Positions 27,587 through 30,056 of a DNA stretch of 32,000 nucleotides are shown here, piece by piece (position 1 is the first letter of the stretch; each line of letters begins with the position of its first letter). The position numbers were made by a program, and so were the translations under genes. A model generated the notes under the pieces. The model ran no database searches. It had not been told where the DNA came from and worked only from the letters and a program-made list of their open reading frames with translations. Source of the DNA: Nitrososphaera viennensis EN76 (GTDB lineage Archaea; Thermoproteota; Nitrososphaeria; Nitrososphaerales; Nitrososphaeraceae); contig NZ_CP007536.1 in NCBI RefSeq assembly GCF_000698785.1, positions 1,440,001 through 1,472,000 of the forward strand. The letters are read 5' to 3'.

Positions 27587-28084
27587 CTATTGTATGTAGG
27601 ACTGGCTTGCCCTGTCGAATTTCTTGACCAGCTGGAACTCCCGGCCAAACTGCGTCTGCATCATGTTGCGCAGCTGCGGGAACAGCGATGATGGGTCTTC
27701 CTTGGCCATTTTGGTCGAGCCGTGATCCTCTCCGAGCATCGTCTTGCAGAGGTTGTAGGTCATCTGGCGCACCGTGTTTTCGTCGATGATGCCAAGGCTG
27801 TGCAGGTATTCGTGCGCCAGAACCATGAACACGTACGCGTTGTATTCTGCTTCCGAGCCGGACAGCCTGCGGATTGCGGCAAGCACGTGGCTGTTCATCA
27901 CTATTACGTTTGAGCCCAAGATATGGTAGGCGCCAAGGTTTGTCGGCATGACCTGCAGTATCAGGCTCAGGCCGGCGCGGTGCATCTTGAATTTTTCATA
28001 GACGGCGCTCTTGACCAGCTCAAAGGCTTCATCAAAGTCCTTCAAGCCTGCTACTCTGGCCCGGAACTCTGCCTGCGATTGCAC
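27587..28084 (-). CDS. HExxH motif protein (putative zinc metallopeptidase), unknown family
   Basis: VLAHEYLHSLG. The track ORF (to 28156) uses a TTG inside the IS terminal repeat, which cannot be ancestral. The GTG at 28084 lies about 31 nt from a TATA-like tttata (28113-28118, minus sense). The start is uncertain. Confidence 0.5.
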   Translation of the reverse strand: MQSQAEFRARVAGLKDFDEAFELVKSAVYEKFKMHRAGLSLILQVMPTNLGAYHILGSNVIVMNSHVLAAIRRLSGSEAEYNAYVFMVLAHEYLHSLGIIDENTVRQMTYNLCKTMLGEDHGSTKMAKEDPSSLFPQLRNMMQTQFGREFQLVKKFDRASQSYIQ

Positions 28085-28138
28085 TCTAGTAATAATTGTG
28101 CACAATCGACCGTATAAAGCCGGCAGTAAGCCGGAGCT

Positions 28139-28144
28139 TACTTC
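28139..28144. repeat. left copy of 6-bp flanking direct repeat TACTTC (target-site duplication)
   Basis: It immediately abuts the left terminal inverted repeat and is identical to 29481-29486. Confidence 0.75.
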
Positions 28145-28188
28145 GGGTTCTGTCAAGTCTCAGGTTGATGAGCAACCCTGTCAACTTT
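28145..28188. repeat. left terminal inverted repeat (44 bp)
   Basis: gggttctgtcaagtctcaggttgatgagcaaccctgtcaacttt. It contains two direct CTGTCAA copies (28150-28156, 28178-28184). Confidence 0.9.
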
Positions 28189-29336
28189 CGATAGTTGTTG
28201 ACAGAAACTTAACTTGCTTGCATCGACTTTCAGAATTGCCGGCTCCTTGCTGCTGGGTTTCTGTACCATTGCTTCATCTGCAAGCCCTTTTGAACGCTGG
28301 AACGCGTCAGCGCCCTTCTTTGCTATGTTCATCGCAGCTACAACGTCACGGTCCATCCACTTATTGCATTCTTGGCACCATAATTGCCGTCTGTGGACGA
28401 AATCGTGATGCTCTGCCCCTTGGAGTCTCTTTCCGCATCGAGGACAGAGCTGCGACGTTCCTCTCGTCTGACCTTTCGTTAGTGTTATTACTTTAACGCC
28501 TGCCCAAGCCGCCTTGTACTCTACTTGCCTCTTCAGCTCGTGGAACGGCCAAGAGTTCATCTTTCCTCGATGGTCGCGGCCTTGGTAATTCCAACGCTGG
28601 TATAGGCGGCGAATGAAGGTTATATCCTCAAAAACTATTGCCGCTTTCTGTTCTTTTGCCCGCTGTACAATTGCTTTTGATACATTGTGCAATAGCTGGT
28701 TAACGCGGTTTTTCCTGCGCAGGCCATACTTGCCTGCTATGTTTTTCCTTATCCTCGCATTGTTGCGCTTGAAGGAGCGGATTGCAGAGCGCGTGTTTTC
28801 TGCTACCTGTACGGCTTTCGATGCATCAAAGGTGATTATCTTTTCCTCGTTGCCATATGTGACGTTTGCAAGGTTCCTGTCAACCCCTGCTATCGCGATG
28901 CATTCAATCTCTGCCACTTCTTTAGAGTAGCAGATGCTCTCACCGTGTTGTTGGCGGCAAGAGTGAAAGAACGTACTATCACGGCGGGATCGGACAGGAT
29001 GTTATTGATGTAGGCATTGAGTAGGATGCCAAAGTACTGTCGATCACCAAGAGGAACCTTCAAAGCGCCTTTTTCGACCTTGAAACCGTAGGATGAGATT
29101 AGAATTGCCTTCTTTAGATATGGTGTTTTTGTAGGAAAACCGCGCTTTAGCGATTGCTTTCTGTTTGCAATTATGCCGGCTGCCTTTGAAATCGCGTGCA
29201 GCTTGTAGTAAGAAATGATGTCATACTTGGCAAGAGCAGGATAGCAGAGCACCGATAGCCTCTTTAGAGTCGAAGCATCATTTTGCGGGCCGATTCTAAT
29301 GCAGTCATTAACCATTTTTCTGAATGTTTCCATCAT
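28153..29336 (-). pseudogene. tnpB: TnpB-like RNA-guided-nuclease/OrfB gene, split into two ORFs (28890..29336 and 28153..28917)
   Basis: The C-terminal ORF has RuvC-I AGVDRN, RuvC-II IVFEDI, zinc finger CPRCG...CQEC and RuvC-III RDVVAAMNIA. The N-terminal ORF ends ...FTLAANNTV, then the frame breaks at gtgAGAGc (28937-28941). Removing one AG gives ...NNTVSICYSKEVAEIECIAIAGVDRN.... Confidence 0.8.
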
Positions 29337-29436
29337 TGGAAATAACTGCTCGGTCTAGCAGGTCTTCTGCTCCACGCTCTTTACTGCCAACAACGATAAT
29401 CCGTTAACAAGTTGATATATAAGATTTGATCAGCCA

Positions 29437-29480
29437 AAAGTTGACAGGGTTGCTCATCAACCTGAGACTTGACAGAACCC
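29437..29480. repeat. right terminal inverted repeat (44 bp)
   Basis: aaagttgacagggttgctcatcaacctgagacttgacagaaccc is the exact reverse complement of 28145-28188. Confidence 0.9.
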
Positions 29481-29486
29481 TACTTC
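29481..29486. repeat. right copy of 6-bp flanking direct repeat TACTTC
   Basis: It immediately abuts the right TIR and is identical to 28139-28144. Confidence 0.75.
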
Positions 29487-29492
29487 GCAATC

Positions 29493-29500
29493 TTTTTTAC
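29493..29500 (+). promoter_or_regulatory. TATA-like box of apt
   Basis: ttttttac is centred about 26-29 nt upstream of the GTG codons at 29523 and 29526. It begins only 7 bp beyond the right TSD copy (13 bp beyond the end of the IS). Confidence 0.35.
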
Positions 29501-29522
29501 TGCCACCCCATGCGTAGTGTCC

Positions 29523-30056
29523 GTGGTGGCCAAGCTAAACCTCGACAGGATAATCGGCAAGCATCAGGACTTTCCAAAACCAGGCATACTTTTCCGCGAC
29601 ATCAATCCTGTTTTTCGGAACCCCGACGCCCTCAAGTTCATTGCAAGCGAGTTTTCCCGCAAGTTTTCAAAGACGAGGTACGACGCTACTGCCGGCATCG
29701 AATCCAGGGGCTTTGTCGTCGCGACGGCGGTTGGCATGAAGGCGGGCAAGGGCGTGATAATGATAAGAAAGGTAGGCAAGCTTCCCGGCCCCACCATCAA
29801 GAAATCGTACGACATTGAATATGGCAACGCCACGATGGAGCTGCAGACAGACGCGGTGAAAAAGGGTCAAAGGGTCTTGATAGTCGACGACCTGATTGCG
29901 ACCGGCGGCACTGCCGTCGCGGCTGCGCAGCTGGTGGAAGAACTTGGAGGCAAGGTCGCGGGCTTTGGTTTTGTAATAGAGCTGGCAGGATTAAAGGGCG
30001 CCGACAGGCTGCGCCAGATGGGCTACAGGGTAGAGTCTCTGGTGGTGTACGACTAG
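29523..30056 (+). CDS. apt: adenine phosphoribosyltransferase
   Basis: DFPKPGILFRDINPVF, GIESRGF, PRPP motif VLIVDDLIATGGT. The track ORF start (TTG at 29469) lies inside the IS TIR. A GTG at 29523 or 29526 fits APRT length and the TATA spacing. Confidence 0.85.
   Translation: MVAKLNLDRIIGKHQDFPKPGILFRDINPVFRNPDALKFIASEFSRKFSKTRYDATAGIESRGFVVATAVGMKAGKGVIMIRKVGKLPGPTIKKSYDIEYGNATMELQTDAVKKGQRVLIVDDLIATGGTAVAAAQLVEELGGKVAGFGFVIELAGLKGADRLRQMGYRVESLVVYD

Follow-up and report, generated by a model that had tools for sequence, protein, structure and literature searches.

A tnpB-carrying element with IS6-like ends and a putative ωRNA merged with its right terminus in Nitrososphaera viennensis

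The element and its insertion site

The stretch of DNA analysed here, referred to as the window, comprises 32,000 nucleotides of Nitrososphaera viennensis EN76 (contig NZ_CP007536.1, positions 1,440,001 to 1,472,000), and all coordinates are given in its own numbering. It contains a short element that is bounded by a terminal inverted repeat (TIR) and has as its sole coding content a TnpB-like gene on the minus strand, present in two frames (29336..28890, 148 amino acids (aa), and 28917..28153, 254 aa). It is suggested here that the element is probably a non-autonomous relative of archaeal IS6-like transposons, and that the RNA partner of TnpB may be encoded across its right end, which is the end lying 3' of tnpB and therefore has the lower coordinates.

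According to a preliminary description of this DNA, 29437-29480 is the exact reverse complement of 28145-28188, and this was confirmed with a repeat finder (44/44). No further copy of the 44-mer was found in the window, even at three mismatches (the shuffle expectation was 0), and no related tip was found elsewhere in it. TACTTC lies on both sides of the element (28139-28144 and 29481-29486), as had also been reported, though the exact direct repeat is of 7 bp, TACTTCG (28139-28145 and 29481-29487), and overlaps base 1 of the 44-bp TIR. From the sequences of related elements, the more likely arrangement is a 43-bp TIR starting GGTTCTGT together with an 8-bp target-site duplication (TSD), TTACTTCG/CTACTTCG, which has one mismatch, because the TIRs of relatives begin with GGTTCTG-like sequence and their duplications are of 8 bp. 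The element would then occupy 28146-29479 (1,334 bp). The alternative of a 44-bp TIR and a 6-bp TSD also fits, and matches the empty site described below with 0 mismatches. With the preferred boundaries the right-end TIR (GGTTCTGTCAAGTCTCAGGTTGA...CTGTCAACTTT), which is bipartite and IS6-like, lies at 28146..28188 (44 bp with 28145) and its exact inverted copy at 29437..29479, and the right-side and left-side copies of the duplication lie at 28138..28145 and 29480..29487, respectively. The G+C content of the element is 47.1%, as against 52.6% for the window.

The insertion is real. When the flanking 168-aa HExxH protein was used as a handle in a search for empty sites, two metagenome contigs (L176 and L177) were recovered that encode a 94%-identical protein, its gene lying 72 bp from apt. 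The spacer in these contigs reads …GCCGGAGCTTACTTCGCAATCTTTTTTACTG…, which is the window's two flanks fused through one copy of the repeat. The unoccupied site, …GGAGCTTACTTCGCAATC…, with its single TTACTTCG, is found in both, and the empty allele that the preliminary description had predicted, ...GAGCTTACTTCGCAATC..., is present there. In relatives a divergent spacer of 72 bp separates apt from the HExxH-protein gene, and the element would have entered it through a staggered-cut DDE reaction in which 8 bp of the target were duplicated. The insertion probably cut both neighbouring genes off from part of a shared promoter region. In the window the mechanical open reading frames (ORFs) of the two neighbours (28011-28156 and 29469-29560) now start inside the TIRs.

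The tnpB gene and its decay

The C-terminal of the two tnpB fragments (28153..28917, minus strand) matches Pfam PF07282 (Cas12f1-like_TNB) with an E value of 7.6e-18 and a score of 64.9 bits, against a gathering threshold of 26.3, and its stop codon falls within the TIR. GVDRNL, FEDI, MDRD and CPRC...CQEC can all be seen in the window translation, which bears out the initial reading of the only gene as TnpB-like, with a RuvC D/E/D triad and a CxxC...CxxC finger. When this fragment was joined at ..NNTV/SICYSKEV to the N-terminal one (MMETFRK...; 28890..29336, minus strand), the repaired protein scored 102.9 bits on the NF040570 guided_TnpB model (cutoff 100). Its matches in the PDB are weak and are to TnpB/Cas12f chains. 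A search with the repaired protein gave over 1,100 relatives, of which the best-matching is 75% identical and most carry the label Nitrososphaera. The alignment of homologues (A1) shows no variation at D152, E236, D328/D330 or any of the four Cys, all of which the window translation retains.

The gene carries two lesions. An extra AG in GAGAG (28937..28941, minus strand), two bases that are not in the related loci L001, L003 and L041 when the DNA is aligned, shifts the reading frame. Further upstream, a conserved N-terminal extension (LLAVKSVEQ..; 29337..29393, minus strand) is broken by an in-frame TAG at 29355-29357, whereas the corresponding 60-nt segment upstream of MMETF in relatives (AVKxxxQ…) is of the same length and stays open. 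Because of this frameshift and the in-frame TAG the window copy, to judge from its sequence and leaving sequencing errors aside, cannot make a full-length TnpB and is a relic. By contrast with tnpB, the ends and the RNA region of this copy appear undamaged. A programmed frameshift was ruled out, as a slippery site is not present and relatives are in frame, and so was a nuclease-dead, TldR-like domestication, the catalytic residues being invariant across the clade. A TATA-like box, CTTATATATC (29413..29422, minus strand), whose CTTATAT motif is conserved in L001, is a candidate archaeal promoter for tnpB.

It had been proposed at the outset that the insertion was a recent one. This proposal is weakly supported: the two TIRs are identical, but tnpB has two disabling lesions and, if the TSD is read as 8 bp, its copies differ at one position. 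The window TIRs are identical over 43 nt, including a second module that most relatives do not have at the right end, whereas the two ends of the elements of relatives agree over 15-25 nt only. That identical 43-nt TIRs surround a doubly lesioned gene may reflect end homogenisation or end replacement.

The ends of the element and of its relatives

Relatives were examined at 88 loci, 80 of them metagenome loci (47-68% identical) and the others from genomes. The clade as a whole comprises more than 1,100 proteins and 452 metagenome loci; its hosts are Nitrososphaeria and Bathyarchaeia, and in it the TnpB end sits against an IS6-like tip. With up to two mismatches allowed, the tip TTGACAGAACC occurs within ~50 bp 3' of tnpB in 69 of the 88 relatives, and the TnpB C-termini, in which …QP(K/E/R)T or …E(S/P)IS precedes the stop codon, are the TIR translated in frame. 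Element length is ~1.25-1.37 kb in dozens of diverged loci, and their architecture is constant. A recognisable inverted partner was present in 30 non-redundant elements, with a TSD matching at 8/8 positions in ten and at 7/8 in five, and all of the TSD sequences are different. In L001 and L003 a tip, GGTTCTGTCAA…, is common to both ends, and L001 is flanked by TAAACTTT on either side.

Elements of the IS200/IS605 and IS607 families have neither TIRs nor TSDs; those of IS200/IS605 have subterminal hairpins and insert 3' of a tetra- or pentanucleotide. Since TIRs and TSDs are present here, the element falls outside both families. An ordinary IS200/IS605 element of the IS1341 group, moved as a single strand by a Y1 TnpA acting in trans and with an inverted repeat that is an incidental subterminal hairpin, would account for the TnpB protein, the hairpins near the right end and the short conserved motif upstream of the left end. 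Single-strand peel-and-paste leaves no target duplication, however, and here 8 bp are found once in the empty site and twice in the occupied one, with 15 relatives having 7-8/8 TSDs of unrelated sequence. The ends are moreover inverted rather than direct and recur on DDE transposase genes, and the conserved motif stands 8 bp off the element end, with no abutting. An origin of this sort is extremely improbable.

What the ends are was approached through a 20-nt tip pattern, GGTTCTGTCAAGTCTNNGGTTG, scanned in one genome per species. It was found in 92 archaeal stretches, belonging to Methanoperedens, Bathyarchaeia, Methanocellaceae, Methanothrix, Thermoplasmata, Asgard archaea, Nitrososphaeria and others. 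The element end sequence is GGTTCTGTCAAGTCT.., of which GGTTCTGTTAACTTATC is a subclade variant, and the layout of the ends is bipartite, GGTTCTGTCAAGTCTTCGGTTGAT-N8-CTGTCAAAnTTCGGTTG; the window TIR aligns to it over its whole length (~50 nt). The window TIR begins GGTTCTGTCAAG, and its first 8 nt are those of the published consensus for the TIRs of the IS6/IS26 family, GGTTCTGTTGCAAA, a family that makes 8-bp TSDs (PMC6807381, PMC7986276). The tip pair of L078 brackets an IS6-type DDE transposase (PF13610, 47 bits against a gathering threshold of 27), and a remnant of the same is found in L016. IS6-like transposase ORFs adjoin 17 tips and this TnpB adjoins 8, and DDE_Tnp_IS240 is the only transposase type seen beside the tip among the 92 stretches. 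In none of 98 ends were tnpB and an IS6-like transposase combined in one element, and the two were never both inside the same 2.6 kb. Homologues of the transposase in Nitrosotalea, Nitrosotenuis and Nitrosopumilus are named 'IS6 family transposase' by NCBI. The set without TnpB also has 8-bp TSDs, in the transposase-bearing L078 and L088, in L080, which is a miniature inverted-repeat transposable element (MITE), and in L031 and L035; both L080 and L091 lack any cargo gene between the tips. A DDE transposase gene between similar TIRs, which the preliminary description had recommended looking for, was found in L078, L088 and L180, and these were used as the transposase-bearing reference elements. 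A second TIR was not found for the transposase-bearing L038, L054, L056 and L062, where the locus is cut or the end has diverged, and no recognisable TIR was found for L182, a Nitrosotenuis transposase.

The elements with these ends differ considerably in what they carry. The transposases of L180 (1512-4687), L038 (6719-7840) and L056 (1341-4267) are of ~370 aa, with SWIM-like and IS1-type zinc modules preceding the DDE domain, in elements of at least 3 kb that have small extra ORFs (one of them MazE-like); L056 has two copies in tandem. They are unlike the 700-750-bp archaeal IS6 entries in reviews and may form a separate, long IS6-like group. L078 (128-5367), from a Thermoplasmata metagenome-assembled genome (MAG), is 5.2 kb long; its TIRs, of 50 nt, are almost identical, its TSD is of 8 bp, ACTCTTGG, and besides the IS6-like transposase it carries an N6-methyltransferase-like protein of 853 aa and further ORFs. 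Only 8 bp separate its left end from a further TIR end (…ACAGAACC) upstream, with two elements meeting across those 8 bp. Elsewhere the tip brackets an 815-aa ResIII helicase-MarR-RNase H fusion (L021, 636-3259), a conserved two-gene cassette with no Pfam match (L045, 1638-2970, and L036, 212-1471, minus strand of the locus) and a Fic/DOC protein (L009, 6441-7447). A Nitrososphaera sp. MAG has a TIR that is 93% identical to that of the window (L067, 5783-5826), with no tnpB or transposase behind it and a second GGTTCTGTCAAA in direct orientation ~730 bp further on; this may represent a lone end, or else an element that has some other cargo.

The variety of cargo bears on who moves the element. 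The preliminary description had left room for an undescribed, autonomous 'OrfB-type' group of insertion sequences (IS), in which TnpB or a dedicated other enzyme would perform transposition with TIRs and TSDs. The large size of the TnpB clade would suit such a group, as would the fact that no transposase was found linked to the element or in the same genome. The same ends, though, carry transposase genes, helicase, Fic and methyltransferase cargo as well as RNA-only MITEs without tnpB, and both the window copy and MITEs have TSDs despite having no functional tnpB. TnpB is an RNA-guided RuvC nuclease and is not known to have strand-transfer activity. Because the ends are common to non-TnpB cargo, the OrfB-type reading is not supported, and autonomous transposition of this kind seems very unlikely.

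The partner might also be a DDE transposase of some family that is not IS6-like but has a similar GG..CTG terminus, in which case the shared tip would be convergent. G1, G2 and G7 do occur in the TIRs of other families (Harmer & Hall, PMC6807381), and the tip variants of TnpB subclades, GGTTCTGTTAACTTATC and GGCACTGT.., are not on any sampled transposase element. Identity to the transposase-bearing ends nevertheless extends over at least 22 nt, across both modules of the ~50-nt bipartite end, no transposase type other than DDE_Tnp_IS240 lies beside the tip in the stretches sampled, and an 8-bp TSD suits IS6. We regard convergence with another DDE family as very unlikely.

An ωRNA-like structure at the right end

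A consensus RNA structure was derived from an alignment of 33 diverged right ends. It has four helices and 21 base pairs, with compensatory double changes in 16 of the 21. Paired cells amount to 94.5%, compared with 25-46% when the partners are slid, and none of 500 shuffles was as good. The structure is placed on the tnpB sense strand because G·U pairs are frequent. Its fourth helix joins gene and transposon end: the codons …SKL(S/T) pair with TIR bases 9-14, all six pairs have compensatory changes, and the two sides of the helix change together as ends go from the GTCAAGTC type to the GTTAACTT type. In the TIR the outermost 8 bases (ACAGAACC) are invariant and unpaired. The minimum free energy fold of the window sequence shows the consensus helices, and a covariance model made from the right-end alignment scores 73 bits on the window (E 1e-14). 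Over 695 kb the model finds 24 sites, all of which abut a TIR tip and more than 10 of which have no tnpB upstream. An Rfam scan of the element (E <= 1) gave only a chance match to Chloroflexi-1, at 20 bits against a gathering threshold of 80. The final 105-145 nt of the element (28146..28290, minus strand), from the tnpB 3' end to the element boundary, would on this evidence encode a covarying, ωRNA-like structure, a putative RNA whose terminal helix includes TIR bases 9-14. ωRNA is used here for the RNA of systems termed OMEGA, which stands for obligate mobile element-guided activity.

Such a merger of RNA and transposon end is pertinent to the idea that a conventional TnpB-only element became nested by chance inside an older IS6-type MITE. 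In favour of it, MITEs with these ends are known (L080, L091), and the window and L001 have an extra TIR module of ~38 nt that most relatives lack. It is difficult, however, to reconcile nesting with a tnpB frame and an RNA that run into the TIR, with TIR bases 9-14 that covary with the C-terminal coding region of tnpB, or with the constancy of architecture and length over so many diverged loci, and no second set of element ends was found inside the element. Nesting is in our view highly improbable.

The preliminary description had also advised a check for MITE-like deletion derivatives, and these were found. L006, L019, L030, L050, L069, L073, L076, L079, L083 (Bathyarchaeota BA_23/BA_24), L090 and L095 belong to a multi-copy, RNA-only MITE family of ~415 bp that was seen in two Bathyarchaeota MAGs. 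Members have a left end GGCACTGTCAAC…, a conserved ωRNA-like 3' part of ~230 nt and the right-end tip, with no tnpB, and six have TSDs matching over 7-8 of 8 bp, each preceded by TTG or TTA. An Asgard archaeon (Atabeyarchaeia chromosome CP147779) has two further RNA-only derivatives of this type of element, L061 (4840-5107) and L015 (4433-4543). The one in L061 measures ~268 bp, carries the TSD TCATGTGA and shows 81% identity to window 28208-28287.

Target motif and presumed guide

The guide of a TnpB is the DNA directly beyond the right end of its element. Because the ωRNA-like scaffold stops exactly at 28146, the guide presumably begins with the TSD, and we predict from the biology of TnpB that it is encoded by the flank at 28130..28145 (minus-strand CGAAGTAAGCTCCGGC), a length of ~16 nt being assumed. 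In the empty site this sequence follows TTG. With elements read in the direction of tnpB, the trinucleotide immediately 5' of the upstream TSD copy is TTG, TTA or ATA in 21 of 30 elements, and 26 of the 30 have T as its middle base. The corresponding count for W-T-R on the downstream side is 1 of 29, the background being 6.6% (p ~1e-18). The TTG/TTA motif is seen in the RNA-only MITEs with TSDs as well. The window reads aTTG/CGAAGTAG/GGTTC, in which the TTG (CAA on the plus strand; 29488..29490, minus strand), 5' of the left-side TSD, was already in the empty site and is a candidate for a motif resembling the target-adjacent motif (TAM) of TnpB. The empty allele has the motif and a full match to the presumed guide, and the occupied allele has a match of 8 nt only; this is the geometry that a TAM needs.

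Discussion

In this study the sequence at 28146-29479 is considered, with good probability, to belong, as a non-autonomous element, to a group of IS6-like DDE transposons in archaea and to carry an OMEGA module (tnpB and ωRNA) as cargo. As there is no transposase in cis, mobilisation would take place in trans, by a transposase supplied from an IS6-like element elsewhere. The original suggestion of a non-autonomous TIR element bearing tnpB and moved by an unlinked DDE transposase is supported to this extent, and the IS6-like DDE_Tnp_IS240 enzyme, with its same TIR tip and 8-bp TSDs, is the probable partner.

A mechanism can be proposed in which the module and the transposon act as one. The transposon would insert where a T-rich trinucleotide, TTG in the present case, comes to lie just 5' of the duplicated bases on the side upstream of tnpB. 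The ωRNA would be transcribed in the tnpB sense and across the right TIR, whose bases 9-14 would supply the 3' side of the final RNA helix, and the invariant outer 8 bases would join it to a guide made up of the duplicated 8 bp and the downstream flank. An unoccupied allele, having both the TAM-like motif and the guide match, would be cleavable, and in an occupied allele the match would be broken after 8 nt, so that TnpB would convert or eliminate empty alleles. That the OMEGA module is functionally fused to the IS6-like DDE transposon in this manner, with the terminal 14 nt serving as last ωRNA helix and linker, the guide beginning with the TSD, and an asymmetric landing (TTN + 8 bp on the upstream side) supplying the TAM, is a tentative proposal to which we give somewhat less than an even chance.

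Several observations weigh against these interpretations. The transposases score 109-111 on the NCBIfam IS6 model, for which the cutoff is 125, and Harmer & Hall put the case that the 'IS6' elements of archaea may constitute a family of their own (PMC6807381). A tblastn search of the window and of all TnpB loci found no IS6-like transposase in the window or in the flanks of the TnpB loci, no genome was shown to hold both a TnpB element of this type and an IS6-like transposase, and none of the best 120 transposase homologues is labelled as of the genus Nitrososphaera. About half of the TIR-paired TnpB elements have no TSD, which is an indirect hint of a cointegrate (copy-in) route. With regard to the motif, TT is present at one end in every one of the seven TSD-flanked elements of the non-TnpB set, and therefore TTG may primarily be a landing preference of the transposase, later matched by the TAM of TnpB, as in IS605.

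The preliminary description had overstated the novelty of a tnpB gene within TIRs. Six DDE-associated TnpB branches (DDE-1 to DDE-6) with inverted terminal repeats, including some solo TnpBs within the same ends, are described in the main text of Altae-Tran et al. (2023, PNAS, PMC10691335), so the general phenomenon is already known, from IS630 and IS5-type transposons, and a 2026 review lists ISL2, IS630 and IS1031 as the partner families and the association as rare in prokaryotes (PMC13565253). Like these branches, and like the eukaryotic Fanzor, the element places an OMEGA nuclease inside a TIR-bounded, TSD-making DDE transposon. It shares with the branches, as set out in that main text, a tnpB 3' end at most 250 bp from the transposon end and solo TnpBs whose ends are also those of elements with a transposase and whose mobilisation is presumed to occur in trans. 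It differs in that its partner is IS6-like (DDE_Tnp_IS240), a type named neither in the review nor in that main text, in its hosts, which are Nitrososphaeria, Bathyarchaeia and Asgard archaea, and in that tnpB and transposase were not seen in one element among the 98 ends sampled. No paper linking TnpB with the IS6 family, or reporting IS6 in Nitrososphaera, was found in the searchable literature. Within that literature, and with DDE-1 to DDE-5 compared from the main text only, the IS6-like partner, the merger of TIR tip and ωRNA and the geometry of TAM, TSD and guide appear new.

Comparison with the archaeal and long zinc-finger clades of IS6/IS26 gives a similar mixture of likeness and difference. 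The TIR start GGTTCTGT, with the GG and G7 of GGTTCTGTTGCAAA, the 8-bp TSDs (7/8 in the window, or 6 bp in the other reading), the MITEs and the DDE_Tnp_IS240 transposases of partner elements are all shared. On the other hand, the window element is without a transposase, its TIR is bipartite and of ~43-50 bp rather than 14-18 bp, and the partner transposases, at ~370 aa, have extra N-terminal zinc modules and fall under the NCBIfam IS6 cutoff. Passengers are common here, whereas only one transporter IS (ISDsp3) has been noted for the family (PMC7986276). Passenger-carrying transposons were not detected in archaea in a 2019 survey of Thaumarchaeota (PMC6563490), and the present elements indicate, counter to that survey, that such transposons do exist in archaea.

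With the IS1341 group of IS200/IS605 the element has in common a TnpB-family protein with RuvC triad and zinc finger, and a structured RNA that spans the gene 3' end to the element boundary, with the guide presumably from the flank. It departs from that group in its long TIRs (30 non-redundant relatives with TIR pairs) and TSDs, and in the placing of the motif, which is separated from the end by 8 bp instead of adjoining it. As in mobile insertion cassettes and transporter IS, the ends bracket passengers and no transposase, and a related IS is needed in trans; the passenger here, unlike theirs, is a mobile-element nuclease, and its putative RNA and the transposon end have become one physical unit.

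Cas12 descends from TnpB, whose accepted role, established in IS200/IS605 and IS607, is the restoration of transposons after scarless excision; its known associations with DDE transposons are rare and have received little analysis. The findings add a further partner family for TnpB, IS6-like, in ammonia-oxidising and other archaea, and the anatomy is unusually clean: the site is known in its empty state, independent TSDs are numerous, the covarying RNA ends at the transposon end and a strand-specific motif occupies the TAM position. The question of what use an RNA-guided nuclease is to a transposon that duplicates its target and possibly does not excise is thereby made testable. If the proposed fusion is true, each insertion would program TnpB against its own empty allele, making an RNA-guided homing drive of a TSD-making, possibly non-excising archaeal transposon, and this drive would in turn be parasitised by ωRNA-only MITEs. 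It would also contradict the recent view that OMEGA systems benefit solely those transposons that excise scarlessly.

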